Part shown: positions 1,244 to 32,955 of the stretch, one piece after another | Layout: every line of letters begins with the position of its first letter | Position numbering within the stretch: the first letter of the stretch is position 1 | NCBI GenBank assembly: GCA_963717985.1 | Contig: CAVQYC010000005.1 | Span: forward strand, 265,106-329,105 | Direction of reading: 5' to 3' | DNA: 64,000 nt | Source: an uncultured delta proteobacterium | GTDB taxonomy: Bacteria > Desulfobacterota > Syntrophorhabdia > Syntrophorhabdales > WCHB1-27 | Program-made: the position numbers and the translations under genes | Notes under the pieces: generated by a model | Told to the model about the DNA's origin: nothing | What the model saw: the letters and a program-made list of their open reading frames with translations, nothing else | The model's database searches: none

Positions 1244-1245
1244 GG

Positions 1246-1880: not shown

Positions 1881-1942
1881 TGAGTAATTCCCCACCCCCG
1901 GGGCGGCGGTAATTCCTCACTTCTGCCCGGATGGGTAGTCAG

Positions 1943-7365: not shown

Positions 7366-7369
7366 AATG

Positions 7370-9215: not shown

Positions 9216-9282
9216 AATGTTGAAATTGGGCAGCGTCGGGGCCGTAGCTCCGTTTATTCCGTTATTCCAGCAGAACAGTGCG

Positions 9283-9684: not shown

Positions 9685-9685
9685 T

Positions 9686-9907
9686 TCAACCCCTTGTGAG
9701 GGCCATGATCTCGTCGGTCGTCATCCGGACCGAACCCTTGCCGCGAATGCGCTCGATAAGCTCTTTACCGCGGCCACCTGGTTTGCTTTTCAATACACAC
9801 ACGTTGTTCCCTTCCAGTGTGAACTCTACCTCTACTCCTGGCAGCAAACCGGCCTTATCCCTGATTTCTTGTGGAATTGTCACCTGACCCTTGCTGGTGA
9901 TCCGCAT
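9686..9907 (-). CDS. vapB: AbrB/SpoVT/MazE-fold antitoxin VapB
   Basis: MRITSKGQVTIPQEIRDKAGL is the classic SpoVT-AbrB swapped-hairpin motif. The ATG at 9907 is preceded by GGAGGG. The ORF track extends the frame to 9967. Confidence 0.8.
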   Translation of the reverse strand: MRITSKGQVTIPQEIRDKAGLLPGVEVEFTLEGNNVCVLKSKPGGRGKELIERIRGKGSVRMTTDEIMALTRG

Positions 9908-10210
9908 ATGATCCCTCCGCCTAGTCTTACTCTTACCAATATTACTGTATATTGAGAGAGAAGCCATGTCAAGGAGTCTACACGGGAAAGCCCTTCTCCT
10001 TCATGATTGCTTGTCCTCGCGCCGTCGCGATACCGACAACTGGTTGGTGTCATCATTCCTCGTCATCAGTGATAAGGAACTCAAAGGTGAGGAAGCAGGC
10101 GAAAGCCTTGTGGGCATCAGAAAAAGGCTGCACGGATGACCGAATAGGACTGTTTTCGGAACCGCCTCGCCGCACCTTTATACCGGTCGTGGCGCCGAAC
10201 GGAGAAGGGC

Positions 10211-10705
10211 TCACTGCGACACCTTGGCAATCACTCCCATGATATGGCCCTGGAGCGTCTGGTAGCTCTGGAAGTCGGTAAAGATAAAGGACGCCCCGAT
10301 GGTCGTCTGGCCGTTGGAGTGTGTATGCCTGGCCAGGCAATCCACGGTGAGCGCTCTCTCGCCTTCGGACAGGGTGAAGATCACGGAGATGGCAGACTCC
10401 TCCCCTGCCTCGCACTGAAAGCCCTGGGGGACCGATATCCGTATGCCGTCGAGGGAGATGTCCTGGAGCATTCCCGCGTGCACCGTCCCATCAAGGCCCC
10501 TCACAAGGGCGGGGATGGATATCTTTTTCCGAGGATAAAGGCGCTTCTCCCCGTCCACGTTTTTCAGCTCTCGCTCTTTTATGTGCGCATAGAGGATGTT
10601 CTCTATGAAGGAAGAAAGAGATCTCTTTTCCTCGCTGGAGATCTTCTCCAGCGCTTTGCGCAATTCCTCGCTCGTCCGGAAACATATTGTCGTATCCCTG
10701 CTCAA
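10211..10705 (-). CDS. Ribbon-helix-helix (CopG-like) / PilZ-domain fusion protein
   Basis: The N-terminus TICFRTSEELRKALEKISSEEKRSLSSFIENILYAHI fits an RHH fold. Both PilZ signatures are present: RLYPR (RxxxR), then DISLDG (DxSxxG) about 20 residues later. Confidence 0.7.
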   Translation of the reverse strand: MSRDTTICFRTSEELRKALEKISSEEKRSLSSFIENILYAHIKERELKNVDGEKRLYPRKKISIPALVRGLDGTVHAGMLQDISLDGIRISVPQGFQCEAGEESAISVIFTLSEGERALTVDCLARHTHSNGQTTIGASFIFTDFQSYQTLQGHIMGVIAKVSQ

Positions 10706-10947
10706 GCGGTCCCTTTCTCCTCAATGAGATTATAAGCGTGCCGGGGTAGAAATGCTGCAAGAGTCATCGGAGATCAGCCGGAACTATTGCCTCAATTCCT
10801 TTTTCAACTGCACAAAATAGCCCCTGATATATTCATAGTCCCCTAACTCATCTTCTACAGTTTTCCCCCATTTTTGCCAATCGACCCACGTATTTATGCG
10901 GGTTTTCGGGCAATAATCTGAAAAACGGCCCTTTCCGTAGTGCCACG

Positions 10948-12659: not shown

Positions 12660-12684
12660 GTAGTGCCACGCCCTCTTTCTGTCT

Positions 12685-13311
12685 CTATAAGTCGTTAATT
12701 TTGCAGAAGAATAAATTTGTTGGTGTAGAAGATGAGCCTAATGCAAGCTCTCGCGTCTCCGGGAGAGCAAGTCCCTGCCACCTCTGCTCGATATCGTCGA
12801 GCATGTAATCTATCGGCTTTTTCCCATAATAGTGTCGGATATACCTGAGGATGCCTATGACCCCCAGAGTATCTATCTTATCGGCATCGTAGAGGATTTT
12901 AGATTCTATGCTCGTCCTCTGATCCGATGTTGCACTCACATCATGTACCCTGATGGCATGGAGAACGCGCTCTCTCTTTTCCGTGGGGAAATGGATTCTC
13001 TCCAGCACCGGCTCCGCCTTCTGGGCGCTCAGGGCGCCGTGAGCCGTATCGGGAATGTAGTGTCGACCGAGATCGTGCAGATAGACAGCAGCCACCAGTA
13101 TCTCGGGGTCCGCGTCGAGTTTCTTTCCCAGACGGTCGCAACGTTCCCGTACCCGGAGAATATGATCCAGGGCGTGCACCTCCGACACCGCCGGAGCCTT
13201 TTCCATCTCATCAAGGAGTTCCTTTTCAAGCACTGGTATCCAGCTCATCCAATGGTCTTTCCAATCATCCATCTGTGCCTCCCGATGCATAAGGGCGGTG
13301 CGGACGTCCAC
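12685..13311 (-). CDS. HD-domain metal-dependent phosphohydrolase
   Basis: H...HD pattern (HALDHILRV, VYLHDLGRH), a downstream HAIRVHD and YDADKIDTLG. The C-terminal 20 aa look atypical and end 15 bp from the IS1634-like flank. Confidence 0.75.
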   Translation of the reverse strand: MDVRTALMHREAQMDDWKDHWMSWIPVLEKELLDEMEKAPAVSEVHALDHILRVRERCDRLGKKLDADPEILVAAVYLHDLGRHYIPDTAHGALSAQKAEPVLERIHFPTEKRERVLHAIRVHDVSATSDQRTSIESKILYDADKIDTLGVIGILRYIRHYYGKKPIDYMLDDIEQRWQGLALPETRELALGSSSTPTNLFFCKINDL

Positions 13312-16174: not shown

Positions 16175-16181
16175 AGGACGC

Positions 16182-16389
16182 GTACCTTTTCTGCCGCCTT
16201 TCTTTCTGTACTTGAGAAAGACTTTTCCAGCGAGAAAGGCGGCTTCCCAGGGGAGTGGGTCTTTCCGGAAGAACAGGGGATCGAGGACTTCCTCCAGATC
16301 CTCGATAGAGGCAAAGCGTATCGATATCTCTGCATAGATAAGGGGATTGATGACGAGAGTGTTCTTGTCTGCTTCAAAAGCCGGCTTCT
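16182..16389 (-). pseudogene. vapC: Internal fragment of a second vapC gene
   Basis: 208 bp align base-for-base with vapC positions 9401-9608, with only about ten mismatches by eye. No start codon, no N- or C-terminal portion and no antitoxin partner are present. Confidence 0.8.
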
Positions 16390-16419
16390 AGGTCCATTGC
16401 CTGGGTGTGGTTTCAGCCG

Positions 16420-18695: not shown

Positions 18696-18859
18696 AGCTT
18701 TTCGCCTGGTGCTGATTATGAGTAAACGGGCATTGGGGCCGGCAAATTATACCAGAACAATTTTATGATATAAAGATCGGTTCTTCTTCCCGATTAGCGG
18801 ACTGAAATGTTGCGCCACGGCTCCGGGAAGCCCATCGTCCTTTTTTCCGAGGATGCTTT

Positions 18860-18924
18860 TTGTCACCCTTGGTTGTCATCTCTGGTTGTCGCTCCTGGTT
18901 GTCACTCCTCCTTGTCGCTTTGAC
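18860..18924. repeat. Five tandem 13-bp repeats (TTGTCAC-type), the inverted counterpart of 31458-31522
   Basis: TTGTC(A/G) recurs at 18860, 18873, 18886, 18899 and 18912, an exact 13-bp period. The reverse complement aligns with the GTGACAA array at 31458-31522. Confidence 0.85.
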
Positions 18925-19088
18925 AGGAGAGCGGAAAACTGAGAAAATCTTATCAGCACCCTTCCCTCCCTGCCGGTCGGGTGGTGCGACGTGAGCAAGT
19001 GGCGACCCGGCCGCATCCGGGTGGGGTATGATGGATTTAGTGGACACCAAAGTTGAGGTACAATACAGAAGCAGACGGAGGTGTCACT

Positions 19089-19409
19089 ATGGCGAAGGAG
19101 AAGATCCCCTATGGCGTCTATTCGAGAGAGTTCCGGGAGGAGGCGGTCAAGCTGGTCATAGAAAACGGCTTCAGCGTCAGGCAGGTGGGCGTTCAGCTAT
19201 CAATCCCTTCTACCACCATAAGGTACTGGGTAAAGGCCCACAAGAAGGGTGAACTCGCATCAGTGGGGAAGACGAAGAAGACCCTCTCGGAAACAGAGCT
19301 GGAACTGGCACGGGTGAGAAGAGAACTGGCCGAAGTGAAGATGGAACGTGATCTACTAAAAAAGGCAGCCGCGTACTTTGCGAAAGGGTCGCTGCCCGGT
19401 ACGCGCTGA
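19089..19409 (+). CDS. IS3-family transposase OrfA
   Basis: HTH (FSVRQVGVQLSIPSTTIRYWV) plus a leucine-zipper-like tail. The ATG at 19089 follows GGAGG. The ORF track begins at 19053. Confidence 0.85.
   Translation: MAKEKIPYGVYSREFREEAVKLVIENGFSVRQVGVQLSIPSTTIRYWVKAHKKGELASVGKTKKTLSETELELARVRRELAEVKMERDLLKKAAAYFAKGSLPGTR
19358..19364 (+). promoter_or_regulatory. Programmed -1 frameshift heptamer A_AAA_AAG (OrfAB fusion)
   Basis: CTA AAA AAG is in the orfA frame. The -1 frame read from here runs in frame into orfB (...ALMKQMRLTY). This is the canonical IS3/IS911/IS150-type motif. Confidence 0.75.
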
Positions 19410-20269
19410 TGAAGCAGATGCGACTCACGTACTCCATCCCCCGGATGTGCCGTTTCTTCAGGGTATCGGCAAGCGGATACTATAAATGGCTCAATGCTCC
19501 TCCTTCAAGACATGCCAGGGAGGAAGCACGGCTGGAAATAGAGATCCGGGTTGCCCACAAAAGGACCCGTGAGACCTCAGGGCCTGAGAAGCTTCAGGCA
19601 GACCTTGCGGAACATGGGATAAGGGTGGGCATCTGCAGGATCAGACGGATCAGGGAGAAACTGGGGATACGGTGCAAACAAATCAGGAAGTTCAAGGCAA
19701 CAACGCACTCGAAACATACGCTTCCCGTGGCGGAGAACCTCCTGGAACAGAACTTCAGGGTAGAAGCTCCAAACGAGGTCTGGGTCAGTGACCTGACCTA
19801 TGTGCCCACCGAAGAAGGCTGGCTCTACTGCGCCGCTCACAAAGACCTCTTCAACGGGGAGATCGTCGGCTACGCCCTGGGATCGAGGATCATCACGGAC
19901 CTAGTGAAGGAGTCCCTCTCCCGGGCAGTAGGGTCCAGGCGCCCGGCCAGGGGACTCATTCATCACTCTGATCGCGGTTGTCAGTACTGCTCCCACGAAT
20001 ACCGGAAGCTGCTCGAACGGTTCGGCATGAAGGCATCAATGAGCAGAAAGGGCAACTGCTACGACAACGCCCCTATGGAGAGCTTTTGGGGCACCTTGAA
20101 GAACGAGCTTGTCCACCACCGGCATTACAGAACAAGAGAGGAGGCACGCAGAGACATTACCGAATACATTGAAGTCTTCTACAACCGGCAGCGGCGTCAG
20201 AGACGGCTTGGCTATCTATCTCCCGTGGCATATGGGAGGCAGTTCCACGCCAGACAGGTTGCGGCATGA
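19409..20269 (+). CDS. IS3-family transposase OrfB (DDE integrase core)
   Basis: DDE motifs WVSDLTY, HHSDRGCQY and CYDNAPMESFW. It overlaps the orfA stop. Confidence 0.9.
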   Translation: MKQMRLTYSIPRMCRFFRVSASGYYKWLNAPPSRHAREEARLEIEIRVAHKRTRETSGPEKLQADLAEHGIRVGICRIRRIREKLGIRCKQIRKFKATTHSKHTLPVAENLLEQNFRVEAPNEVWVSDLTYVPTEEGWLYCAAHKDLFNGEIVGYALGSRIITDLVKESLSRAVGSRRPARGLIHHSDRGCQYCSHEYRKLLERFGMKASMSRKGNCYDNAPMESFWGTLKNELVHHRHYRTREEARRDITEYIEVFYNRQRRQRRLGYLSPVAYGRQFHARQVAA

Positions 20270-20318
20270 AAGATATTTCGTGTCCACTATTGACATCAGG
20301 GGTCAGACGGCGGTGCCC

Positions 20319-20516
20319 CACCCCCCCCTAAACCGTCCAGTTTCGTCCACTTTCGTCCACCCCCCTTCTGGAAGGCTTGCGGGAGAAGAGAATGAGAAGA
20401 GGGGTTGCGAGACGGCCTGTGAAAAATGCGTGCCGAAGAGGGCAAAGAAAGAGTAAAAGGCGGTAAAACATGCCAAAACTAAGCGTTTTTGCGTTTGTTT
20501 GTTCACAACGTTGCGC
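20319..20516. repeat. ~0.2-kb repeat block with three tandem 10-bp units, the inverted counterpart of 31113-31268
   Basis: CGTCCAGTTT, CGTCCACTTT and CGTCCACCCC at 20334-20363, followed by CCTTCTGGAAGGCTTGCGGGAGAAG. The reverse complement aligns, with indels, to 31113-31268. Confidence 0.8.
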
Positions 20517-20585
20517 GGCCGGTCTAACTCCGCAACAACATGGTTGTAATTGCCGGTGTAACCTGTATAATCTTTAGCGATATTT

Positions 20586-21272
20586 ATGGAGAACTCCTTT
20601 ACTATACATGATCTCCCCAGGGCCGAAAGGCCGCGGGAGCGCATGCAAGCACTTGGGGCCGAAGCGCTTTCGTCCCTGGAGCTGCTCAGCCTGATTATCG
20701 GCAGGGGTGTCTCCGGCAAATCGGCCATGCACATAGCCCAGGAACTTTTGACCACATTCGGGAACATCCATGCCGTCAGCCTTGCTACAATAGAGGAGCT
20801 TTCCCGGGTAAAAGGCATAGGGCTTGCGAAGGCTGCCCAGATCAGGGCCGCCTTCGAGCTGGGCAGGCGCCAGGACCTGGAGCCGGATGTGGGACAGTAC
20901 AGTATAAGCGATCCGGAGCGTCTCGTAAAAGCCCTTCGAAAAGGTATTCAGGAGAAGGCAAAGGAGCACTTCAAGCTTGTCCTTCTCAACACGAGGAACA
21001 AGATTATCGGTATATCGACTATATCCGTGGGAACCTTGAACGCGAGTCTCGTGCATCCCCGCGAGGTCTTCAAGGACGCGCTGACGCACAACGCCTCGTC
21101 GATCATACTCGTCCACAACCACCCTTCGGACGACCCCGAGCCTTCGGATGACGACCTTACGGTAACCCGCAGGCTGGTCGATGCAGGCCGGCTGATGGGG
21201 ATCGAGGTGCTCGACCATATCATTATCACCCGGAGCGGCTACACGAGCCTCAAAGAAAAGGGCCTGCTGTGA
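20586..21272 (+). CDS. radC: RadC-family JAB/MPN-domain protein
   Basis: N-terminal HhH region (ELLSLIIGRG, VKGIGLAKAAQI) and the JAMM motif HNHPSDDPEPSDDD. Confidence 0.9.
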   Translation: MENSFTIHDLPRAERPRERMQALGAEALSSLELLSLIIGRGVSGKSAMHIAQELLTTFGNIHAVSLATIEELSRVKGIGLAKAAQIRAAFELGRRQDLEPDVGQYSISDPERLVKALRKGIQEKAKEHFKLVLLNTRNKIIGISTISVGTLNASLVHPREVFKDALTHNASSIILVHNHPSDDPEPSDDDLTVTRRLVDAGRLMGIEVLDHIIITRSGYTSLKEKGLL

Positions 21273-21297
21273 TCCGGCCGCGAGAGGAGACCGGCGC

Positions 21298-22149
21298 ATG
21301 CTGCGCATGAACGTCGTTTGCAAGAGGAACAAGGAGGCTGCCTTCGCTGCCGCCCAGGAGATTATTGATCGGTACGGGGCATCTCTCGACATCGCCCTCG
21401 ATGAAGATGCAGCGAGCCGGATCGGCCACGGGAAGACATTCGAGATGGAGCATGTGGCGGATGGTGCAGACCTCATCGTAGTACTCGGCGGGGACGGCAC
21501 CCTGCTTTCGGTTGCCCGGCAAGTAAGGGGGAGAGACGTGCCCGTCCTTGGGGTGAACCTGGGGGGCCTCGGTTTCCTTACGGAGATAACCCTCGAAGAG
21601 TTGCCGGAAATGCTGACCCGTGTGTGTGCAGGTGATTACTGCACCTCAACCAGGGCCATGCTCGATGTGGCGGTGAAGAGAGAGGGAGAGGAGATTTTTG
21701 CCCTTTCTCTCCTCAATGACGCGGTTATCGCAAAGGATGCCCTGGCGCGCATTATCAATATCGAGACGTACGTGGACAACGACTATCTGACGACCTTCCG
21801 AGGCGACGGCCTGATCGTCTCCACCCCTACCGGTTCCACGGGTTATTCTCTGGCCGCGGGCGGCCCTATCCTCTATCCTTCCCTGGAGCAGATCGTGCTC
21901 ACCCCCATCTGCCCGCACATGCTGACCAATCGTCCTATCATCCTTTCCCGGGAGGTGATAGTGCGGGCAAAGCTCGTTTCCCCTGACGAAAAAGTGATAC
22001 TGACCCTGGATGGTCAGGTGGGACTGCCCCTCGACCACATGGACGAGGTGCTGATGAGAAAATCGGCATTTTCCGTGACTTTGATAAAATCGGAGACGAG
22101 GGATTATTTCGAAGTGCTGCGGGATAAACTGAAGTGGGGTGAGAGGTAA
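21298..22149 (+). CDS. nadK: NAD(+) kinase
   Basis: GGDGTLL motif (VVLGGDGTLLSVAR), NLGGLGFL and the TPTGSTGYSLAAGGP block. Confidence 0.9.
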   Translation: MLRMNVVCKRNKEAAFAAAQEIIDRYGASLDIALDEDAASRIGHGKTFEMEHVADGADLIVVLGGDGTLLSVARQVRGRDVPVLGVNLGGLGFLTEITLEELPEMLTRVCAGDYCTSTRAMLDVAVKREGEEIFALSLLNDAVIAKDALARIINIETYVDNDYLTTFRGDGLIVSTPTGSTGYSLAAGGPILYPSLEQIVLTPICPHMLTNRPIILSREVIVRAKLVSPDEKVILTLDGQVGLPLDHMDEVLMRKSAFSVTLIKSETRDYFEVLRDKLKWGER

Positions 22150-22150
22150 C

Positions 22151-23770
22151 ATGCTCGCTTTCCTGCGGGTGAAGGGTTTTGCCATTATCGATGAGCTGGA
22201 CGTGGAATTCAAGGAAGGGTTCAACGTGATAACAGGGGAAACAGGCGCGGGAAAATCGATCATCATCAACGCCCTCGCGTCGCTGCTTAATGCGCGGGTG
22301 CCGACCGATGTAGTTCGGGGAGCGGCGGAGCGCGCGGAGGTAGTGGGCCATTGCTTTCAGGACGGCGAGGAATATGTTTTAAGAAGAATTATAGGCAATC
22401 AGGGGAGGTCACGGGCTTTTATCAATGACAACCCCGTCACGGTGAAAAGCTTGGAGGAGCTTGGGAGTCTGCTCATCCACGTGTACGGCCAGAACGAGTC
22501 GCAGCAGCTTCTCAGCAAGGAGAACTATGTCTCCATGGTCGACCGTTTTCTCCATTTGGAGGGGGAAGCGCAGGCCCTCTCCGGCCGGGTGAGACGCCTT
22601 GACGAGGTGAGGCGGCTCCTGGAGGCGCGGAAGTCGGCTGCTGCCGGTCAGGGCAAGGAGATAGACCTCCTCACGTACCAGCTTCAGGAGATCGAGAAGG
22701 AGCGCATCGGGGCCGGCGAGGAAGAGAGGGTCAGGCAGAGGCTGAAAGTGTTGAAAGATGCGGCGAGGATAAAGAACAGCATCCAGGGCGTCGCGGGCGG
22801 GTTGTATGAAGACGAGCAATCGGCGCATGCCTTGGTCACCGGGTGCTCGGCACTCCTCAGACCATTTTCCGGCATCGCGTGGGTAGATGCGATCAGGAAG
22901 AGGATAGAAGGCATATCTTTTGACGTGGAGGACATAGTCCGGTCGATCAGGGAAGAGGAAAAATCCCTCGATGACGAGCCGGGCGAGCTTGAAGGGCTCG
23001 GGGAGCGGCTGGCGACGATCGCCAGGCTTAAAGAGAAGTACGGCAAGACTTACGGCGGCATCGCGGAGTTTGAAGACTGGGCGCGAAAACGGCTCGAAGA
23101 GCTTCTCCATATGAAGACGGATGAAGAGGAGCTGGAATTGGAGAAGGCATCTCTTGAGGCCGCCGTCGGAGAGATGGCGGCCGCCTTGTCCGCATCGAGG
23201 AAGAACGGGGCACAGGAGATCGAGGAACTCGTGAAGGGAGAGCTCGCGTTCCTTTCCATGAAAGGCGTTCAATTCAAGGTCGATATCGCGGACAAGGGCT
23301 GGATCGGCGAAGACGGCAGGGACGAGGTGGAGTTCCTGCTCACGACGAACCCGGGAGAGCCCCTGAGGCCGTTGCGGAAGGTCGCGTCCGGCGGCGAGCT
23401 TTCGAGGATCATGCTCGCCGTCAAGAAGGTCACGGGCGGCGAAGAGGATAAGACCTTTGTCTTCGACGAGATTGATGCAGGCATCGGGGGCAGGGTGGCC
23501 GAGGTTGTGGGTAAAAGGCTCGGGGAGCTTTCAGGGAAACACCAGATCATCTGTATTACCCATCTCCCGCAGATAGCGGTATACGCAGACCACCATTTCC
23601 TTGTGGAGAAATACCAGGAAGAGGCTGCGACCCGCACCTCGATCAGGCAGCTCACAGGTCCTGAGCGGATCGAAGAGATCGCAAGGATGCTCGGGGGTAT
23701 CACGATTACCGGGAAGACACGGGGGCAAGCGGAGGAGATGCTGAGGAATGCTCAGAAAAGCGCGTATTAG
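22151..23770 (+). CDS. recN: DNA repair protein RecN
   Basis: Walker A GETGAGKS, a long coiled-coil centre, the signature ASGGELSRIMLA and Walker B FVFDEIDAGIGG. The ATG at 22151 follows the nadK stop. Confidence 0.9.
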   Translation: MLAFLRVKGFAIIDELDVEFKEGFNVITGETGAGKSIIINALASLLNARVPTDVVRGAAERAEVVGHCFQDGEEYVLRRIIGNQGRSRAFINDNPVTVKSLEELGSLLIHVYGQNESQQLLSKENYVSMVDRFLHLEGEAQALSGRVRRLDEVRRLLEARKSAAAGQGKEIDLLTYQLQEIEKERIGAGEEERVRQRLKVLKDAARIKNSIQGVAGGLYEDEQSAHALVTGCSALLRPFSGIAWVDAIRKRIEGISFDVEDIVRSIREEEKSLDDEPGELEGLGERLATIARLKEKYGKTYGGIAEFEDWARKRLEELLHMKTDEEELELEKASLEAAVGEMAAALSASRKNGAQEIEELVKGELAFLSMKGVQFKVDIADKGWIGEDGRDEVEFLLTTNPGEPLRPLRKVASGGELSRIMLAVKKVTGGEEDKTFVFDEIDAGIGGRVAEVVGKRLGELSGKHQIICITHLPQIAVYADHHFLVEKYQEEAATRTSIRQLTGPERIEEIARMLGGITITGKTRGQAEEMLRNAQKSAY

Positions 23771-24206
23771 CGATGTCAGCCTTATCCACCGGTTGATCAA
23801 CTCGTGCGCCGAGCGCGGGGAGATGCTTCCGCGGTCGCTGGCCGAGTTGTATGATAACATGCGCGACTATTTTGTGTATGAGCATCCGGAAACAGGCGAG
23901 ATCGGAGGTGCGTGCAGCCTTCACATCTGCTGGGAAGACCTGGCCGAGATAAGGTCTCTCTGTGTCGTGGAACACCTGCGGCGCCTGGGTGTGGGTGCGG
24001 ACCTTGTGAGGGCATGCATGGAAGAGGCGAAGCAGTTTGCTGTAGAAGAGCTGTTCGTTCTGACCTATCGACGTGAATTCTTCGGGCAGTTCGGGTTCGA
24101 AGAGGTGGAGAAAACGCGGCTCCCCCAGAAGATTTGGACCGATTGCGTGAAATGTCCGAAATTCCCTCTCTGCGACGAAGTCGCAATGATCACCCGTCTG
24201 CCGTAA
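23748..24206 (+). CDS. GNAT-family N-acetyltransferase
   Basis: 152 aa with an acetyl-CoA binding motif (VVEHLRRLGVGADLV). It overlaps the recN 3' end by 23 nt. Confidence 0.75.
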   Translation: MLRKARISDVSLIHRLINSCAERGEMLPRSLAELYDNMRDYFVYEHPETGEIGGACSLHICWEDLAEIRSLCVVEHLRRLGVGADLVRACMEEAKQFAVEELFVLTYRREFFGQFGFEEVEKTRLPQKIWTDCVKCPKFPLCDEVAMITRLP

Positions 24207-24236
24207 TTTACCGCGCCGGCGCAAGGAGGTTTCGCC

Positions 24237-25541
24237 ATGGAGAGCCAATTCTGGACACAACGTCTGGAGACAATCTTTGAAGACTGGGAGGTCTGCCTGG
24301 TAAAAGAGCGCGCCAAGAAGTACGAAGCCGCTGATGGCGAGCTCCTTACCATGGAGGTCAAGGAGGAGGAGGGCATCTCACTCCGCGCCGTGAAAGACGG
24401 GAAGAGGTGTTTCTCATACACCTTCGAAAAGGGGGAGAAGGCGGTCTCCAGCCTCTTAGGGAATGTCACCGCGTTGATGCCCTTTCTCGATGCAGACCCC
24501 TGCTACGTGTTCCCGTCCGGATCCGGGCAGTATCCAGACCTCGATCTTTACGACGAAACAGGCCTAAGGACCGCTGACGACGTGAAAATCGACGCGCTCC
24601 TGCAAATGGAATCGACCATCCGGCTAATCGACCGGCGGATCACCCACACGAGGAATTGCGAGCTTCATGAATCGGAGCTGCACGTGGGTATCATCAATTC
24701 ACGTGGCTTGAGGGCAGATGCAAAAAAGACCGTGTACACCTTGGGCGCCATGGCGGTTGCGCAGGACGGCAGCGACGAGGTCTCCTGGTACGACTGGTCA
24801 TGGGCGTCGCGGTACCGCGATCTGGATGGACACAAACTAGGGCGCCGGATAGCGGAAAAGGCGCTCTCCTGCCTCGCGGGGGAGGTCCTCACGACAGGCG
24901 TCTATAATGGCCTTCTGACCCCTGCATGCGCCTGCCAGATACTGGAGATTCTCTCTCCCTCTTTCCTGTCCGAGAACCTGTACAAGAATAAGACCTGCCT
25001 GAGAGACAAGGTGGGGACGCGGTGTTTTTCAGAGCATCTCACGGTCATCGATTCGGGGTTAAGGGGGATGGACGCGTTCCCCTTTGACGGGGAGGGCGTT
25101 CCTTCTCAGGAGAACGTGCTGGTGAACGATGGTGTGCTTCAGGCCTTCCTCTACGACACGTATTATGCAAAAAGGATGGAGAAGGAGTCCACGGGTAATT
25201 CCGTGCGGCCAGGCATCAAAGAGCCGCCGAGATGCGGGTCGCGAGGTTTTTTTATCGATCGCGGCCGTATGGACGATCCGGAGGCGGGAAGGGACGGGGT
25301 CGTGATTGAGGAGTTGATGGGCACCCACATGGCAAACACTATCACGGGCGATTTTTCCCTGGGCGCTATCGGTCACTACTGTTCGGGCACCGCGCCGACG
25401 CCCTTCAAGGGTGTCATCCTCTCGGGAAATCTGTTCGATCTCCTCGGCCGGGTGAAGGCCGTGGGGAAGGACCTCACCTTCTACGGCGACTACGGTTCGC
25501 CGACGCTTCTTGTGGAGGGTCTCAAGATAAGCGGAAGGTAA
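24237..25541 (+). CDS. TldD/PmbA-family metalloprotease-like protein
   Basis: 434 aa. The C-terminal conserved block NTITGDFSLGAIGHY is typical of PmbA_TldD proteins. Confidence 0.75.
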   Translation: MESQFWTQRLETIFEDWEVCLVKERAKKYEAADGELLTMEVKEEEGISLRAVKDGKRCFSYTFEKGEKAVSSLLGNVTALMPFLDADPCYVFPSGSGQYPDLDLYDETGLRTADDVKIDALLQMESTIRLIDRRITHTRNCELHESELHVGIINSRGLRADAKKTVYTLGAMAVAQDGSDEVSWYDWSWASRYRDLDGHKLGRRIAEKALSCLAGEVLTTGVYNGLLTPACACQILEILSPSFLSENLYKNKTCLRDKVGTRCFSEHLTVIDSGLRGMDAFPFDGEGVPSQENVLVNDGVLQAFLYDTYYAKRMEKESTGNSVRPGIKEPPRCGSRGFFIDRGRMDDPEAGRDGVVIEELMGTHMANTITGDFSLGAIGHYCSGTAPTPFKGVILSGNLFDLLGRVKAVGKDLTFYGDYGSPTLLVEGLKISGR

Positions 25542-25564
25542 GAGGGGGCCGGGAGATACCCGCG

Positions 25565-26932
25565 TTGGATAATAAAGGAAAGAGATACATACTGCTCGCG
25601 TTGATCTTCTCTGCGGCGATTGGTCTCAGATTGGCCATCATGGCGAATTCCACGGCCATCGAGCTGGACGGTATAGGCTATGCGACCATGGCCGAACAAT
25701 TCGTCAGGGGCCTTTTCAGCCAGGCCCTGGGCAGTGTTTTCCCTCCCGTTTATCCCCTTATCGTCGCGTCTTTCCACCTTTTCATACCAGACGTGGAGCT
25801 GGCTGGCCGCCTGGTCTCTCTTGTGTTCGGCATGGCCACGATCTACGTCTCTTTCCTCTTCGCGAGACGGCTGCTCCACGACGAGACAAAGGCCGTATGG
25901 GTCGTCTTTCTCCTCGCACTTCAGCCATATCTGGTGCGGTACTCAGGGGCCGTGCTCTCCGAATCCCTCGCCGTCTTTCTCTTTAGCGTCACTGTTTTTG
26001 CCTTCTACGTGGGATGGCAGGAGGGGCGGTCATGGTATATCGCCGTGGCCGGCTTCTGTCTCACGCTGACCTACCTTACAAGGCCCGAGTATCTTATTTT
26101 CTACGTGCCCTTCGTTGCTTTTCTTGCAAAAGGCCGACGTATAAAGGATCTTTTCTTGCTTCTCCTGCCTTTCTTTGTGCTCGGTCTTTTATACATCTGC
26201 TATCTTCGGATTGAAACGGGCTTGTGGATGGTGAGCAAAAAGGCGGTTCCTTCGCCCTTTGCCATGCTTCATGCTTTTGCTGGCAACGTTTCTCTCGTTT
26301 CCTACGAATTCATTATCGCTCTTTACCCGCTGTTTGTTTTTCTTGCAACGCTCGGCTTAAATAAGGTCGAAAGACCTTACCGGAACCTCGTCCTCGGCTT
26401 GATCATCTTCCATGTACTCAGTCTTTGCTTTGTGGGCCATTCGACAAAACGATACTCAGTTGAATTTATTCCTATCTGCATGGTCTTTGTTGTCGAAGGG
26501 ATCTACGCTTCTCGAGCATACTCAAAGGGGATCTTTTTTCAACGGTCCTTCATCTATATTGTTGTCCTGGTCATCATGTGTTTGACCGCTTTTCAGACCT
26601 TTACCCCAATTCGGAATGATAGGGCTCTCCACAAGCAGGCAGGTGTTTTTCTTCTTCGGTACGGGCCGGGTAGTCTCATTGCAGCCCGACTTCCCATCGT
26701 CGCCTTTTATGCCAGAGGTAAGCCTATCGACCTTGCCCACGAGATCGGAGGCAAGAAGGATTTGGCCCATTTTCTCGAAATAGTGTCTGAAAAGAAGGTG
26801 GCGTATCTCGTAGTTGACGAGGAAACGGAGGAGGAGTTTCCATTTCTCAGGAACTACCCAACGTCGGCGCCTCTAAGAGAGTTCAGGAATAAACAGTCTT
26901 TCGTCCGATTGTACAGGCTTCCGTATGGATGA
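25565..26932 (+). CDS. Polytopic membrane glycosyltransferase of the ArnT/PMT type (GT39/GT83-like, GT-C fold)
   Basis: About 11-12 hydrophobic segments. The N-terminus RLAIMANSTAIELDGIGYATMA resembles the first periplasmic loop of ArnT/PMT_2-like enzymes. TTG start. Confidence 0.6.
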   Translation: MDNKGKRYILLALIFSAAIGLRLAIMANSTAIELDGIGYATMAEQFVRGLFSQALGSVFPPVYPLIVASFHLFIPDVELAGRLVSLVFGMATIYVSFLFARRLLHDETKAVWVVFLLALQPYLVRYSGAVLSESLAVFLFSVTVFAFYVGWQEGRSWYIAVAGFCLTLTYLTRPEYLIFYVPFVAFLAKGRRIKDLFLLLLPFFVLGLLYICYLRIETGLWMVSKKAVPSPFAMLHAFAGNVSLVSYEFIIALYPLFVFLATLGLNKVERPYRNLVLGLIIFHVLSLCFVGHSTKRYSVEFIPICMVFVVEGIYASRAYSKGIFFQRSFIYIVVLVIMCLTAFQTFTPIRNDRALHKQAGVFLLRYGPGSLIAARLPIVAFYARGKPIDLAHEIGGKKDLAHFLEIVSEKKVAYLVVDEETEEEFPFLRNYPTSAPLREFRNKQSFVRLYRLPYG

Positions 26933-27953
26933 TCTTGTTTCCGTTGTTATCGTGAATTGGAACGGTGAGCCATTCCTGGGGAAAGCCCTCGACAGCGTTC
27001 TCAGGCAGGATTACCGATCAATTGAAATAATAGCGGTCGATAATGCTTCTACAGACCGGTCGGTCGACCTGGTAAGGGAGCGTTATCCCCAGGTAAAGCT
27101 GCTATTAAACGGACAAAACCTGGGTTTTGCCGCGGGTAATAACATGGGGATTCGTCACGCACGAGGGCGATATATCGTGCTGCTTAACAATGACGCGGAA
27201 CTGGGACACGACTGTATCACCGAGATGAAGCGGGCCATAGATAGCGATCCGAGGTTCGGCGCGTGCGCATCCAAAATTTATCTAAAATTCGAGGAGAATT
27301 TGCTGGATGCGGCCGGGATTGCAATTTGTCCTGACGGACTGTCTATTGGACGGGGAAGACTGGAGAGGGGTGATTGCTATAATGCGGAGGAAGAGGTTTT
27401 TTTTGGGAGCGGTTGCTGCATTATGTGCAGGAGGGATATGCTCGAGGATGTGAGCATTGATAATGATTATTTTGATGAGGACTTTTTCATGTACGCCGAC
27501 GATACCGATCTCGGTTGGAGGGCGAGGCTGCGAGGCTGGAAGACTATCTATTCTCCTCTGGCAAGGACCTACCATGCCCACTCGCTGGCAGCAGGCAGTT
27601 ATTCGCCATTCAAGGCCTTTCACGTAGAGAGAAACAGAATCTGGGTGGCGTTGAAATATTTCCCCCCGGGCCTTCTCGCTTGCGGCCAGATCTTTACGCT
27701 TCAGCGATATGTGCTTCAGGCATATGGGGCATTCGCGGGAAAAGGCGCGGCAGGTTCATTCGTGAAGGAGCGGTCAAGAAGAGAGTTGGTCCGTGTATTG
27801 GGAAGGGTCTACTGGGCGGCCCTCAAGGGTCTTCCGAAGATGCTCAGAAAAAGAAACGAGGTACAAAAGCGACGCACGATCACAAAGAGTGAGATATACA
27901 GGCTTTTCAAAGATTATGGAATACGGGCGCGGGATATCGCGCTGAGAAAATAG
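26925..27953 (+). CDS. Family 2 glycosyltransferase
   Basis: VSVVIVNWNG, AVDNASTD, NLGFAAGNN and an ADDTD (DxD-like) motif. Confidence 0.85.
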   Translation: MDDLVSVVIVNWNGEPFLGKALDSVLRQDYRSIEIIAVDNASTDRSVDLVRERYPQVKLLLNGQNLGFAAGNNMGIRHARGRYIVLLNNDAELGHDCITEMKRAIDSDPRFGACASKIYLKFEENLLDAAGIAICPDGLSIGRGRLERGDCYNAEEEVFFGSGCCIMCRRDMLEDVSIDNDYFDEDFFMYADDTDLGWRARLRGWKTIYSPLARTYHAHSLAAGSYSPFKAFHVERNRIWVALKYFPPGLLACGQIFTLQRYVLQAYGAFAGKGAAGSFVKERSRRELVRVLGRVYWAALKGLPKMLRKRNEVQKRRTITKSEIYRLFKDYGIRARDIALRK

Positions 27954-27970
27954 AGGCGGGTTCGCGTGGG

Positions 27971-28945
27971 TTACTTGAGGAATCTTTCGACAATGCGAAA
28001 CAGGCGGTAAACTAAAGCTTTAGGGAGTGCAATAGCCGGGACGGTAAAGAGCCAAAAGTAGAGATACCCACGGTACAGGGGGTACAGGGAGCGGAAGTAA
28101 TTTTCGGGGATGAGGTTGATCACCTTGCTTCGGGCGAGCGCGAGCATGGCCGGGAAGTGCATCAGCAGGAGCTTCCGGTTAATCGCGCGGAAGTATCTGT
28201 CATCCACGCCTTGTTTTCTGAATATATCGAAAATTTTGTTGAAGTTGTGCCCGAAGACCTGACACAGGGCGTATCCGCTCCAGTCATGGACTCGTGCCGC
28301 GAGCAGATACTCATCAACGTACACCTGTTTTTTGGCATTGAATAGGGCCGAAAATATCCACGCGAGGTGGACGAGGTTTGAGTCGAGGAACGGACGCCAT
28401 TCGGAAGGCTCCTCGACTAAGGTGCGGTTGAATATATTGGCTGACATGAACGCGAACAGGTAACGGGCCCTGTTGACGAAGGCCAGGGTGTCCGTATAGA
28501 CGGTATAGCCCGTCGGCCTGTCGGCCGGTTTCTCCCGGACAAAATCGCTCTCAAAACCGTATGAGTTCAGAAAGACCACGCCGTAATCTCCGCCCCTCAG
28601 GATGGGGAGTAGTTTGTCCAGCGCGCCATCCAAGAGCACGTCGTCATCCCCTGTCATGAGCACGTACTTGCCTTTCGCTTTCCTGTAGCACTGCTCGAAG
28701 TTTCTGTCCGGGCCGATGTTTTCGGCGTTCTTCAGGTAGGTGAGAGGATGGCCGAGAGAGAGGTATTTGTGGACCACCTCCTCTGTTGCATCAGGCGAGC
28801 AGTTGTCCGAGATAAGAAGCTCCACCTCACTTTCGTGGGTTTTTAGTTGACTGCAAATGTTATGAAGACATATATCAAGGTACGATGCCCTGTTATACGT
28901 TGGCACCGCGATGGTGAAGAGGTAAGAGGGGGCGGAAGCGGTCAT
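27971..28945 (-). CDS. Family 2 glycosyltransferase
   Basis: AVPTYNRASYL, ISDNCSPD and GDDDVL (DxD). Start set at the ATG that forms an ATGA overlap with the upstream gene's stop (28942-28945). The ORF track extends the frame to 29023. Confidence 0.8.
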   Translation of the reverse strand: MTASAPSYLFTIAVPTYNRASYLDICLHNICSQLKTHESEVELLISDNCSPDATEEVVHKYLSLGHPLTYLKNAENIGPDRNFEQCYRKAKGKYVLMTGDDDVLLDGALDKLLPILRGGDYGVVFLNSYGFESDFVREKPADRPTGYTVYTDTLAFVNRARYLFAFMSANIFNRTLVEEPSEWRPFLDSNLVHLAWIFSALFNAKKQVYVDEYLLAARVHDWSGYALCQVFGHNFNKIFDIFRKQGVDDRYFRAINRKLLLMHFPAMLALARSKVINLIPENYFRSLYPLYRGYLYFWLFTVPAIALPKALVYRLFRIVERFLK

Positions 28946-30306
28946 ATAGTTTGCCAGGCGCGCTTTTTCGTTCTGAATATCCAGAGAATCCAGGGAAAGC
29001 CCCAGACGCAGCCGGAGAGCCATCCGAGAAAGAAATACTGGGGAGCGAAATACTTGGCACAGAGGACGGTCGTCAGCGTGACGTAGATGGCGGAGAGCAC
29101 CGAGGGCAGCACGAGCGGTTCCTGCTTGTGGGCCCGAAGGTAGGTAGCAAGGCCGTTAACGATGATCTGCAAAAACCAGGCGATTGCGAGAAAAAGCATG
29201 GAGAGCGGGTCGGAAAAGCGGTCTATTATCGCGTACCTCCCTTTCAAAAGGTAGATGAGGGCAAAGATCGCGAGACCGCCTGTGAGAAACGTTGCCCCTG
29301 AAAAGAGCAGGTTCCGCCAAAAGAGCGCATCGAGGCCGGTCCAGTCGCGCTTCGACACGAGCATGTTCAGCCGCGGCGTCACGGCGTAGATCCATGAATT
29401 GGAGACGGCAAAGATGCCTATCCAGAGCATGACGGAGAGGCCCACCCTGCCTGCCTCCACGGGGCCGTGGAACTGGAACGCCAGAGGGGTGTAAACCTGG
29501 AAGATGAAATAACCCGAAGACCAGCTCAGGGCGTAGCGCCAGAGAAGAGCGAGGACGTGGCGCCTCCATGAATAGGCGGCAGCCCTGGACTCGGTAATGA
29601 AGGCGCCGAAGAGCGGTCCGTACCGCCGCCAGACCGCGTAGAGACCGTAGAGCGCCGCCCCGAGCATGGAGAGGGAGAGCGCGTAGAGGCCGAAATGGAA
29701 CACGAGGCCCAGCCACATGAGCACCATGGTCAAGGCCGTGATGAAAAGCCTGAGCCTCTGGATTGCGGCGACCAGGTTGCAGCCCTCCAGAAAGCAGAGG
29801 AGGCCGCTCGTGAAGAAGGTGACGCCTCCCCCCGCCACGTAAACGACCCAGGGAATACCCCAGCGGATGGCGGTCTTCTGTTGAGAAAGGAAGAGGAACC
29901 CCACGAGAAAAATAACCGGAAAGGCCACCACGGCAACGGACAGCGCCCACTTGGCACAGAAAACGAAGAGGCTCGCAAGCCTCTTCTTGTGCTCCTCGCT
30001 ACCGACAATGTCATTGCTGTCGAATTTCAGATAGGCGAACTCGTGGGCGGCAAACTGCAGGGTCACCTGAAAAAAGCCAAGCTCGGCGAGCATGGCCAAC
30101 GCAGCGAGGCTCGTCATGGTGAACCAGTATCCCTGCTGCTCTTTGGTAAGGAAAAGCGGGATCAGGATGAGTGTAAAGATGCCCGAAAGCCCGCGAAAAA
30201 GCTGGTTCGCCTGCGTAAAGATGACGGCTTCATGCAGATACCTCTTCAAACTACTGCCCTGACAAATGCTTTCCTCATTGCATGCCGTCCGGCAACCTAT
30301 TTCCAT
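28942..30306 (-). CDS. Wzx-like oligosaccharide/polysaccharide flippase family membrane protein
   Basis: About 12-14 TM segments. The N-terminal pattern FRGLSGIFTLILIPLFLTKEQQGYWFTMTSL resembles Polysacc_synt-type flippases. Start codon uncertain. Confidence 0.55.
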   Translation of the reverse strand: MEIGCRTACNEESICQGSSLKRYLHEAVIFTQANQLFRGLSGIFTLILIPLFLTKEQQGYWFTMTSLAALAMLAELGFFQVTLQFAAHEFAYLKFDSNDIVGSEEHKKRLASLFVFCAKWALSVAVVAFPVIFLVGFLFLSQQKTAIRWGIPWVVYVAGGGVTFFTSGLLCFLEGCNLVAAIQRLRLFITALTMVLMWLGLVFHFGLYALSLSMLGAALYGLYAVWRRYGPLFGAFITESRAAAYSWRRHVLALLWRYALSWSSGYFIFQVYTPLAFQFHGPVEAGRVGLSVMLWIGIFAVSNSWIYAVTPRLNMLVSKRDWTGLDALFWRNLLFSGATFLTGGLAIFALIYLLKGRYAIIDRFSDPLSMLFLAIAWFLQIIVNGLATYLRAHKQEPLVLPSVLSAIYVTLTTVLCAKYFAPQYFFLGWLSGCVWGFPWILWIFRTKKRAWQTI

Positions 30307-30366
30307 ACACGGTCGTCAAGCGAAAACGGACGTGGGTTGCCGGTACCTCTCCTCCCGGCCGGCCGA

Positions 30367-30768
30367 TCATCGCCAGAGAGTTTTGAGGCCAAGCTTTTTG
30401 TAAGGCCCCAGCCCCCTGTCTTTTGTAATGAGCACGGCATTTCGGTTGAGAGCCTGCCATACAACGAGCCGGTCAAAAGGGTCTTTGTGCGAACCCCTCG
30501 GAAGCTTGTAGAAGGTCGACGCCGTCTCTGCATCCACGTCCATGGTCTCGAAACTCATTTGTTGGGAAATGCCGGGAAGGGCGTCCGGCAAGACATTCGT
30601 CAGCACGAGTTTCCCGAGGGCATATTTCAATGATATCTCCCAGTATGTTGCCGCGCTTACGTACACTCTATTGTCAGGGTCCTCGATTGTTTCCCGGGCT
30701 TTTTGGCTGAGTTTGTCCGGGTCGAATAACGTCCAGAGAAAAACATAGGTATCAAGGAGATAGTTCAC
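30367..30768 (-). CDS. PIN-domain toxin (VapC-like)
   Basis: The N-terminus YLLDTYVFLW and C-terminus LITKD fit the PIN acidic pattern. It overlaps the upstream antitoxin stop by 4 nt. Confidence 0.8.
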   Translation of the reverse strand: MNYLLDTYVFLWTLFDPDKLSQKARETIEDPDNRVYVSAATYWEISLKYALGKLVLTNVLPDALPGISQQMSFETMDVDAETASTFYKLPRGSHKDPFDRLVVWQALNRNAVLITKDRGLGPYKKLGLKTLWR

Positions 30769-31013
30769 GACGCGAACAATTCTTCATCTGTTATCTGAAA
30801 CGGCTCACAGACTTCAAACCTCGCCTTGTCGTGCAGCGGCCCGAGTTTTCTCCGTCCCTTGGGGCGATACTCATCGTACGACACGATTACCGCGACCCTT
30901 TCTCTCTTCTTTCCGTAAGCAACGGCTATCTTCTCTCCGCCCTTCACCCGTTCCAGCACCTCCGAAAAATGTGCCTTGATCTCGCCGACGCCTAACGTTT
31001 TCACTTCATTCAC
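30765..31013 (-). CDS. Phd/YefM-family antitoxin
   Basis: 82 aa. KTLGVGEIKAHFSEVLERVKGGEKIAV is a typical Phd/YefM N-terminal fold signature. Confidence 0.75.
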   Translation of the reverse strand: MNEVKTLGVGEIKAHFSEVLERVKGGEKIAVAYGKKRERVAVIVSYDEYRPKGRRKLGPLHDKARFEVCEPFQITDEELFAS

Positions 31014-31112
31014 CTCATTCTCACAGAGAAATTATAGCCTGGTGTTTGACAAGTTGTCAAGAATAAAGGACGGCCCTAATCGTTCCGGCCGGGTGCCGTC
31101 ATGGACAAATAT

Positions 31113-31268
31113 GCGCAACAAACAGTCTTCTTTTGGCATTGTTTGCCCTTTTTTGCACGCATTTGTCACCAACCGTTTTGCAACCCCTTCCGGATCCCCT
31201 TCTCCCGCAAGCCTTCCAGAAGGGGGGTTTACGAAAGTGGACGAAAGTGGACGGTTTCAGGGGGGGTG
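31113..31268. repeat. ~0.16-kb repeat block with tandem 10-bp GTGGACGAAA units, the counterpart of 20319-20516
   Basis: TTTACGAAAG, TGGACGAAAG and TGGACGGTTT at 31228-31257, preceded by CTTCTCCCGCAAGCCTTCCAGAAGG. It aligns to the reverse complement of 20319-20516. Confidence 0.8.
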
Positions 31269-31457
31269 CATGCCCATTCGACGGAAGATGGGCGACGGGA
31301 GAGGGGAGCAACACTGCTATCCGAAGGGCTGTCGCGGCTCAGTTGTCAAAGAACACGGCCGGGCACGTGATCTATATACGCGGCCTTGGGCTCACACGCT
31401 GACGAAGTGCGGGCGCCTATGCGATATAGTATCTCTCAATCCCTTCTTCCCGTCAAA

Positions 31458-31522
31458 GTGACAAGGAGGGGTGACAATCAGAGACGACAAGGAGAGGTGA
31501 CAACCAGGGGTGACAATAGGCA
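31458..31522. repeat. Five tandem 13-bp repeats (GTGACAA-type)
   Basis: (G/A)(T/C)GACAA starts at 31458, 31471, 31484, 31497 and 31510, an exact 13-bp period. The array ends 3 bp before the IS3 copy 2 terminus. Confidence 0.85.
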
Positions 31523-31561
31523 TGTTGACCCCTGATGTCAATAGTGGACACGAAATATCTT

Positions 31562-32422
31562 TCATGCCGCAACCTGTCTGGCGTGGAACTGCCTCCCATA
31601 TGCCACGGGAGATAGATAGCCAAGCCGTCTCTGACGCCGCTGCCGGTTGTAGAAGACTTCAATGTATTCGGTAATGTCTCTGCGTGCCTCCTCTCTTGTT
31701 CTGTAATGCCGGTGGTGGACAAGCTCGTTCTTCAAGGTGCCCCAAAAGCTCTCCATAGGGGCGTTGTCGTAGCAGTTGCCCTTTCTGCTCATTGATGCCT
31801 TCATGCCGAACCGTTCGAGCAGCTTCCGGTATTCGTGGGAGCAGTACTGACAACCGCGATCAGAGTGATGAATGAGTCCCCTGGCCGGGCGCCTGGACCC
31901 TACTGCCCGGGAGAGGGACTCCTTGACTAGGTCCGTGATGATCCTCGATCCCAGGGCGTAGCCGACGATCTCCCCGTTGAAGAGGTCTTTGTGAGCGGCG
32001 CAGTAGAGCCAGCCTTCTTCGGTGGGCACATAGGTCAGGTCACTGACCCAGACCTCGTTTGGAGCTTCTACCCTGAAGTTCTGTTCCAGGAGGTTCTCCG
32101 CCACGGGAAGCGTATGTTTCGAGTGCGTTGTTGCCTTGAACTTCCTGATTTGTTTGCACCGTATCCCCAGTTTCTCCCTGATCCGTCTGATCCTGCAGAT
32201 GCCCACCCTTATCCCATGTTCCGCAAGGTCTGCCTGAAGCTTCTCAGGCCCTGAGGTCTCACGGGTCCTTTTGTGGGCGACCCGGATCTCTATTTCCAGC
32301 CGTGCTTCCTCCCTGGCATGTCTTGAAGGAGGAGCATTGAGCCATTTATAGTATCCGCTTGCCGATACCCTGAAGAAACGGCACATCCGGGGGATGGAGT
32401 ACGTGAGTCGCATCTGCTTCAT
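31562..32422 (-). CDS. IS3-family transposase OrfB (copy 2)
   Basis: Protein identical to 19409-20269. Confidence 0.9.
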   Translation of the reverse strand: MKQMRLTYSIPRMCRFFRVSASGYYKWLNAPPSRHAREEARLEIEIRVAHKRTRETSGPEKLQADLAEHGIRVGICRIRRIREKLGIRCKQIRKFKATTHSKHTLPVAENLLEQNFRVEAPNEVWVSDLTYVPTEEGWLYCAAHKDLFNGEIVGYALGSRIITDLVKESLSRAVGSRRPARGLIHHSDRGCQYCSHEYRKLLERFGMKASMSRKGNCYDNAPMESFWGTLKNELVHHRHYRTREEARRDITEYIEVFYNRQRRQRRLGYLSPVAYGRQFHARQVAA

Positions 32423-32742
32423 CAGCGCGTACCGGGCAGCGACCCTTTCGCAAAGTACGCGGCTGCCTTTTTTAGTAGATCACGTTCCATCTTCACTTCG
32501 GCCAGTTCTCTTCTCACCCGTGCCAGTTCCAGCTCTGTTTCCGAGAGGGTCTTCTTCGTCTTCCCCACTGATGCGAGTTCACCCTTCTTGTGGGCCTTTA
32601 CCCAGTACCTTATGGTGGTAGAAGGGATTGATAGCTGAACGCCCACCTGCCTGACGCTGAAGCCGTTTTCTATGACCAGCTTGACCGCCTCCTCCCGGAA
32701 CTCTCTCGAATAGACGCCATAGGGGATCTTCTCCTTCGCCAT
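32422..32742 (-). CDS. IS3-family transposase OrfA (copy 2)
   Basis: Protein identical to 19089-19409. Confidence 0.85.
   Translation of the reverse strand: MAKEKIPYGVYSREFREEAVKLVIENGFSVRQVGVQLSIPSTTIRYWVKAHKKGELASVGKTKKTLSETELELARVRRELAEVKMERDLLKKAAAYFAKGSLPGTR
32467..32473 (-). promoter_or_regulatory. Programmed -1 frameshift heptamer A_AAA_AAG (copy 2)
   Basis: CTTTTTT on the plus strand is the mirror of 19358-19364. Confidence 0.7.
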
Positions 32743-32955
32743 AGTGACACCTCCGTCTGCTTCTGTATTGTACCTCAACTTTGGTGTCCACTAAATCCAT
32801 CATACTCTATGTTTGAGATTTTTTGATCGGCCTGTTGTCATATTACCGGCTGGCAGCGAGACGCCGGAGAATATCAGTATTGACGCGAAAGAAGCATAAC
32901 GCCGAAGGCATGGCGAGGGTAGCGAGACTCATCATGGTAAACCATGTTCTGTTAC

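Follow-up and report, generated by a model that had tools for sequence, protein, structure and literature searches.

Two inverted copies of an unnamed IS3-family insertion sequence around a conserved radC-nadK-recN block: probable independent insertions, with no inversion shown

The window analysed here is a stretch of 64,000 nucleotides from an uncultured delta proteobacterium of the Syntrophorhabdales (assembly GCA_963717985.1, contig CAVQYC010000005.1, positions 265,106 to 329,105 of the forward strand). It carries two copies of one insertion sequence (IS) of the IS3 family in inverted orientation, referred to below as copy A (19022-20305, + strand) and copy B (31526-32809, - strand), which enclose a chromosomal block of 11.2 kb (20306-31525) described from Pfam/NCBIfam matches and from synteny with relatives that lack the IS. 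From left to right the block holds radC, nadK, recN, a GNAT gene, pmbA, a GT-C gene and a first GT2 gene (GT2a) on the + strand, followed on the - strand by a second GT2 gene (GT2b), a Wzx-like gene and a PIN/Phd pair. The left flank contains genes for a PfkB kinase, a PNPOx-like protein and an alpha/beta hydrolase, all on the - strand, and in the right flank methyltransferase and GT4 genes, also on the - strand, make up a polysaccharide cluster. An initial annotation of the sequence had proposed that the IS pair renders the block potentially invertible. The comparisons presented here indicate that the two copies probably arose as independent insertions of one active, multi-copy element of 1284 bp around a conserved block, and no inversion is shown.

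A repeat search of the window delimits the arms of the inverted repeat at 19026-20305 and 31526-32805, each 1280 nt long and separated by 11220 nt. The repeat is far beyond chance: aligned base by base, copies A and B differ at two positions only, 19552 (T in A, C in B) and 19906 (G in A, C in B), that is 99.84% identity over the arms. Both differences fall at third-codon positions (GTT/GTC and GTG/GTC, valine to valine), so that OrfA and OrfB are the same in the two copies with no residue changed, in full agreement with the initial reading of the copies. That reading also took the limits of the exact repeat for those of the element, which they are not. Over the core of 1280 bp, copies found at other sites in public metagenome contigs show no difference from copy B (100% identity), and the match of every one of them to copy A runs 4 bp further left, to 19022 (TGGG). 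The true element thus measures 1284 bp, with 4 bp more at its left end, and the exact A/B repeat stops at 19026/32805, 4 bp short of the real end, because the outermost bases of copy B are TAGA and not TGGG. Among all copies this degenerate terminus belongs to copy B alone (TCTA on the + strand at 32806-32809); having lost the canonical TG, it probably impairs further movement, and copy B may be immobile. Copy A, a complete element, has a peculiarity of its own, for its two synonymous single-nucleotide polymorphisms (SNPs) at 19552 and 19906 are absent from the copies at the same site in other samples (L009, L001; L numbers denote the compared loci) and from all other copies, and are thus private to the source of the window.

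The ends of the element are 26-bp imperfect inverted repeats with TG...CA termini, apart from the left inverted repeat (IRL) of copy B, which starts with TAGA. In copy A the IRL is TGGGGTATGATGGATTTAGTGGACAC (19022-19047, + strand) and the right inverted repeat (IRR), given as its reverse complement, is TGACCCCTGATGTCAATAGTGGACAC (20280-20305, + strand), both as defined by the IRL/IRR alignment. Between them lie OrfA (19089-19409, + strand; 106 amino acids, HTH_Tnp_1) and OrfB (19409-20269, + strand; 286 amino acids), the latter an IS3 family transposase with a DDE domain that scores 339.3 bits against NCBIfam NF033516 (cut-off 160) and 2e-25 against Pfam rve. By its coordinates OrfB is in frame -1 relative to OrfA (frame 0), and an A AAA AAG slippery heptamer (AAAAAAG, 19358-19364, + strand) would allow a -1 frameshift from OrfA into OrfB. 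An outward-facing TTGACA lies in the IRR at 20290-20295 (the same hexamer is at 31541-31536 on the - strand in copy B) and a TATGAT in the IRL at 19027-19032. Were the two ends joined through a 3-nt spacer, TTGACA would be followed by 10 nt of IRR, the spacer, TGGGG and TATGAT, giving TTGACA-N18-TATGAT, which could act as an IRR-IRL circle-junction promoter with TATGAT as its -10. IS3-family elements are known for duplications of 3-4 bp, for -1 frameshifting and for copy-out-paste-in transposition (PMC5896891); the present one has, as far as its sequence tells, every feature of a functional member of the family and presumably moves in the same way.

The nearest named elements, ISGlo1, ISBvi4 and IS600, show about 57-63% amino-acid identity in OrfB, hence the element is a new, unnamed IS3-family IS. 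It resembles these members of the IS3 group in its length (about 1.28 kb), in its 0/-1 reading frames with the A AAA AAG heptamer and an rve transposase, in the imperfect 26-bp TG...CA repeats and 3-bp target-site duplications (TSDs), and in having an outward -35 in the IRR and a -10-like hexamer in the IRL; it differs from them in its OrfB sequence, and copy B in its degenerate left terminus.

The correct ends are decisive for the reading of the TSDs. Public contigs carrying the IS were collected by exact-protein look-ups from ENA (ERZ250394xx-5xx, with long-read style names) and NCBI (GCA_0529157xx-62xx), and the same IS occurs at no fewer than five distinct sites, i.e. at least five, in these related metagenome assemblies. 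Three insertion sites beyond those of A and B were used to fix the ends, and end positions were scanned systematically together with 3-bp and 4-bp TSDs over five sites. With the left end moved by 4 bp and the right end unmoved, 3-bp direct repeats appear at four of the five sites, namely AAC/AAC (L034, L036), GGG/GGG (L031), GTT/GTT (L029) and, at copy B, a perfect ACA/ACA in the orientation of the IS; no alternative end position and no 4-bp TSD explains more than two sites. On the + strand the duplication of copy B reads TGT, at 31523-31525 on the inner and at 32810-32812 on the outer side. The initial annotation had found no TSD for either copy. This is right for copy A, where the left flank GGG (19019-19021) is unlike the right flank GAC (20306-20308) with the corrected ends as well, and wrong for copy B, whose TSD was missed because copy B ends in TAGA and the repeat stops 4 bp short. 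Two simple insertions had been expected to reveal themselves by a clear TSD at each copy; one is present at B and none at A. A sequence with a single ACA, ...AAAAAATCTCAAACATGCCTATTGTCACC..., is predicted to be the empty site of copy B.

The TSD of copy B bears directly on the question of inversion. In a crossover between A and B the outer flanks stay with their own IS end and the inner flanks are exchanged, so that an odd number of flips would separate the two ACA copies of B. As both are found on one copy, the present orientation of the block is that in which B inserted, or else an even number of flips has taken place; in either case there has been no net A x B inversion since B inserted. 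The history of the locus, which the initial annotation had left open between independent insertions and inversion, is to this extent settled. In keeping with that annotation, the swapped pairings are unmatched too, the left flank of A against the right flank of B giving GGG and ACA, and the left flank of B against the right flank of A giving ACA and GAC.

The spanning contigs speak the same language. With 1L and 1R for the left and right flanks of site 1 (copy A) and 2L and 2R for those of site 2 (copy B), the arrangement hydrolase-IS-radC (1L-IS-1R) is spanned in GCA_052915705.1 (L009), and FkbM-IS-PIN...radC (2L-IS-2R) in ERZ25039454 contig_2316 (L014, L021, L030). All IS-spanning public contigs that have the flanks of B, or both flanks of A, agree with the window, and neither flipped junction, hydrolase-IS-PIN (1L-IS-2R) or FkbM-IS-radC (2L-IS-1R), is found among the few such contigs available. 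Contigs from short reads end at the IS and are uninformative on the orientation; in them the interior appears as a contig of 11,473 bp with 126-127 bp of IRR at each end.

The rival that survives best holds that the segment is truly invertible, RecA recombination flipping the 11.2-kb block of which the window would represent the majority, original state. Inverted repeats of 1280 bp at 99.84% identity are what such recombination would need, other samples show copy A engaged in IS-mediated exchanges (see below), and the + strand has a positive GC skew within the block against a negative one in the flanks on either side. Against these stand the intact TSD of copy B with its unmatched swapped pairings, the lack of any IS-spanning contig with 1L-IS-2R or 2L-IS-1R, and the fact that both private SNPs are still on A. 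The skew argument itself fails, for GC and third-position GC (GC3) skew are heterogeneous from gene to gene with no replication-strand pattern, and it was rejected as a sign of inversion. Altogether this explanation appears decidedly unlikely. The initial proposal of a potentially invertible segment holds in a generic sense only, any inverted repeat of 1.28 kb being a substrate for RecA: copies A and B are a possible substrate for RecA-mediated inversion, nothing shows that an inversion happened, and no flip is supported. The genes annotated within and next to the segment show no invertase or recombinase domain, their only DDE/rve products being the IS transposases. The locus thus shares with Hin/Gin/Cin switches and shufflons nothing except the geometry of inverted repeats around a segment; it differs from them in having no invertase or recombinase gene and in that the repeats are whole transposable elements, not short sites. 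The likeness to IS-mediated inversions (PMC11708052) goes further, including near-identical inverted copies 11 kb apart, one copy without a TSD and flank exchanges in other samples; the difference is that here the TSD halves are not swapped between A and B, and that the TSD of B is intact.

The missing TSD of copy A calls for an explanation of its own, and a repeated intergenic module of about 400 bp, in or beside which both IS copies lie, offers one. Five TTGTCAC units with an exact period of 13 bp come first, next a promoter-like TTGACA-17-GAAAAT and about 150 bp that vary in sequence, and last a poly-C run with CGTCCAnTTT repeats after it. Alignment places the left half of one module copy at 18848-19021 on the + strand (TTGTCAC array 18860-18925, TTGACA-17-GAAAAT 18920-18948) and the right half, with the poly-C run and the CGTCCAnTTT repeats, at 20306-20446 on the + strand, immediately on the two sides of copy A. 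A second, uninterrupted module copy lies at 31139-31523 on the - strand, with copy B inserted at its left edge, and a further uninterrupted one at L029:15388-15763. The two halves at site A match the L029 module at 90.6% (left) and 87% identity (right), in the same order and orientation, and the right half is 84% identical to the module copy beside B; about 30 bp common to both paralogous module copies are absent at the insertion point of A. The poly-C half is also present upstream of radC in L042, a relative of a different species. By comparison with these paralogous modules, copy A would be an in-place insertion: it would have entered the module upstream of radC and subsequently lost its target duplication along with about 30 bp of the module, either by an adjacent deletion or by recombination between two closely spaced insertions. 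Recombination between IS copies and adjacent deletion are the usual causes of TSD loss (PMC11708052).

The module is low-copy; of the five insertion sites known for the IS, two fall within it or at its edge, and it may serve as a hotspot for insertion or as a regulatory array. It was also considered as a structured RNA, a candidate that was rejected: the window has no Rfam match or tRNA, and the fold of a five-copy alignment has no compensatory pairs. In L010 (GCA_052915925.1), a co-occurring strain, the sequence is 99.6% identical to the window from 20322 rightward and unrelated or strongly diverged just to the left, the switch point being at the poly-C run of the module, with no IS 16 bp upstream. 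The stretch L010:1-103, considered as a possible empty site of A, gives no BLAST match to the module and shares a few short motifs with it by eye, on a contig that ends early.

The second rival takes copy A for a recombinant, left by a large rearrangement between IS copies that joined the hydrolase block to the radC block at the IS. It would account for the absence of a TSD on A, and it draws on the observations that the sequence upstream of radC is different in each relative, that the hydrolase gene has other neighbours in its relatives, that there is an IS nest 6-19 kb to the left, and that hybrid junctions combine 1L and 1R with two other insertion sites, 3 and 5. As regards the latter, in ERZ25039466 contig_67 (L001/L032) a complete IS has the hydrolase flank on one side and the right flank of site 3 on the other (1L-IS-3R), the copy at site 3 lying in a gene for a 1591-amino-acid NACHT-like protein, and in ERZ25039486 contig_5151 (L033/L038) the IS lies between the left flank of site 3 and radC (3L-IS-1R); the 'parental' arrangement of site 3, with AAC/AAC, is found in ERZ25039528 and ERZ25039509. 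Identity between the flanks shared in this comparison is 99.99% across 10 kb and 99.96% across 2.3 kb. The two hybrids are probably reciprocal products, such as a real inversion or translocation would give, yet they come from different samples and could be assembly joins at the repeat. A third hybrid, with the left flank of site 5, the IS and radC (5L-IS-1R) and a Transposase_mut neighbour, is found in GCA_052916065.1 (L037). Nonetheless, the flanks of A are two halves of one module copy in correct order and orientation, no known IS copy has a left flank ending in GAC, and the homology with the hydrolase relatives does not end at the IS. These relatives match the window at 18702-18814 only, which places the boundary between the hydrolase and radC contexts outside the module on its left, some 200 bp away from the end of the IS. 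The adjacency of hydrolase gene and radC thus appears not to have been created by copy A, and the recombinant origin seems very unlikely, a degree below even the invertible segment.

Somewhat less doubtful, though still unlikely, is a milder proposition drawn from the same hybrids, in which the IS copies form an actively recombining network in a soil/peat deltaproteobacterium and the A-B block could flip at a sub-consensus frequency.

An assembly artefact, in which the source contig would have been put together wrongly at one of the IS copies or with the block in the wrong orientation, is suggested by the origin of the contig, a metagenome assembly of a multi-strain population, and by the two SNPs of A that site-1 copies in other samples lack. 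Each of the four junctions recurs in independent samples and with independent assemblers, and each IS is spanned by two independent contigs with the same partners as in the window, so that this explanation is scarcely credible.

The weakest rival concerns the block itself, and is best weighed against the gene content and synteny of the interior. Pfam and NCBIfam matches bear out the gene content first assigned to it, namely radC, NAD kinase, RecN, GNAT, PmbA/TldD, PMT_2 (GT-C), two GT2 enzymes, PIN and a Phd/YefM antitoxin; only the label of flippase is weak, the protein (454 amino acids) having no Pfam match and a sub-threshold Wzx-like NCBIfam match of 81 bits against a cut-off of 300. For synteny, 12 recN-bearing loci from species-representative genomes were compared, these being metagenome-assembled genomes labelled Syntrophorhabdales, Syntrophaceae or 'delta proteobacterium' (Microflora Danica, peat bogs). 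In 11 of the 12 loci RecN is 68-93% identical to that of the window, and the IS is absent from all 12. The order nadK-recN-GNAT-pmbA is kept in 11 close relatives, ten of which also have radC. In six of them the conserved stretch reaches GT2a by way of GT-C, and in one it also takes in GT2b and the flippase, with gene order and relative orientation unchanged. Relative L050 resembles the window also in what comes after the flippase, namely sugar-pathway genes on the - strand. The outer flanks of the window are conserved in no relative, be it the recN relatives from genome contigs or the hydrolase relatives from JGI metagenomes. Of the synteny comparison first suggested as a check, then, the interior half gives a conserved order in IS-free relatives and the outer half gives nothing shared. 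Because it is conserved where the IS is absent, the interior is native chromosome and not transposon cargo.

That the two copies form a composite transposon mobilising the enclosed 11 kb as cargo, as a near-identical pair bracketing DNA with its IRL outward on both sides might suggest, can be dismissed as wholly implausible, in line with the initial annotation: no TSD surrounds the A-block-B unit (outer flanks GGG at 19019-19021 and TGT at 32810-32812), B has its own TSD and a degenerate outer terminus (TAGA), and the genes from radC to GT2a, in one relative as far as the flippase, form a syntenic chromosomal block that is conserved in relatives without the IS. Inverted IS copies around a DNA segment are what the locus shares with composite transposons of the Tn5/Tn10 type, from which it differs by the lack of a unit TSD, by the conserved chromosomal nature of the enclosed genes and by the mutation of one outer end.

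Two independent insertions thus remain the preferred explanation, by which the IS would have entered intergenic DNA on either side of a conserved gene block in two copy-out-paste-in events, copy B as a simple insertion that has kept its 3-bp target duplication. Several points weigh against it. Copy A has no TSD, and an empty-site allele was found for neither copy among the recN and hydrolase relatives; the history of A is read from paralogous modules with no more than 84-90% identity and with indel differences between them. The TSD call for copy B depends on ends defined at other sites, and its left terminus TAGA departs from the canonical TG. The hybrid junctions show the flanks of A exchanged with other IS copies, so that rearrangement is not hypothetical here, and consensus assemblies cannot reveal a minority flipped population.

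Neither insertion interrupts a gene or an obvious proximal promoter. Copy B has on one side the 3' end of a gene for an FkbM-type methyltransferase and on the other the region upstream of phd-PIN. The conserved TTGTAA-16-TATAAT of radC (20544-20571) is still in place, and so is a perfect TTGACA-18-TATAAT of phd (31060-31031).

Further mobile DNA is found in the window and in the compared contigs. The IS nest to the left of copy A spans 229-12736. Here a second IS3-like element (229-1231 and 4402-4915) is interrupted by a Y1 transposase gene of IS200-like type together with an IS21 istA/istB pair. The nest further holds another IS200-like copy (4982-5486), which repeats 1246-1545 at 100%, an IS4-like DDE_Tnp_1 element (10847-12736) and, at about 5520-9220, two DDE_Tnp_1_6 elements of 1.85 kb in tandem that share 87-93% identity. 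A 213-bp direct repeat (9399-9611 and 16180-16392, 95% identity, 6.8 kb apart) flanks the IS4-like element together with a DUF4143 ATPase gene and a gene for a beta-helix protein. At L031:9618-20500 (ERZ25039528 contig_8226) a copy of the IS described here, with TSD GGG, adjoins cas4-cas2-cas1 of a type I CRISPR-Cas system (Cas3, Cas5, Cas7/DevR, Cas6b). In L038 the homology with the window stops inside GT2a (27195) and PriCT_2/DUF927 primase-like genes follow (L038:11966-18033), possibly an integrated element in a strain variant, or else a chimeric contig.

To sum up, the arrangement is an ordinary one and matters little beyond annotation, for which it holds two lessons: a misplacement of IS ends by 4 bp can conceal a TSD, and a TSD preserved on one member of an inverted IS pair suffices to exclude a net inversion between the two. 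What is new are the exact ends, the TSD length and at least five insertion sites of an unnamed IS3-family element in an uncultured Syntrophorhabdales-like lineage. If the A-B block flips, the flippase and GT2 genes would be uncoupled from the adjacent polysaccharide cluster; and if the hybrid contigs are real, large IS-mediated inversions segregate in a natural population. The hybrid junctions, indeed, hint at IS-driven structural polymorphism in that population, a phenomenon already known.

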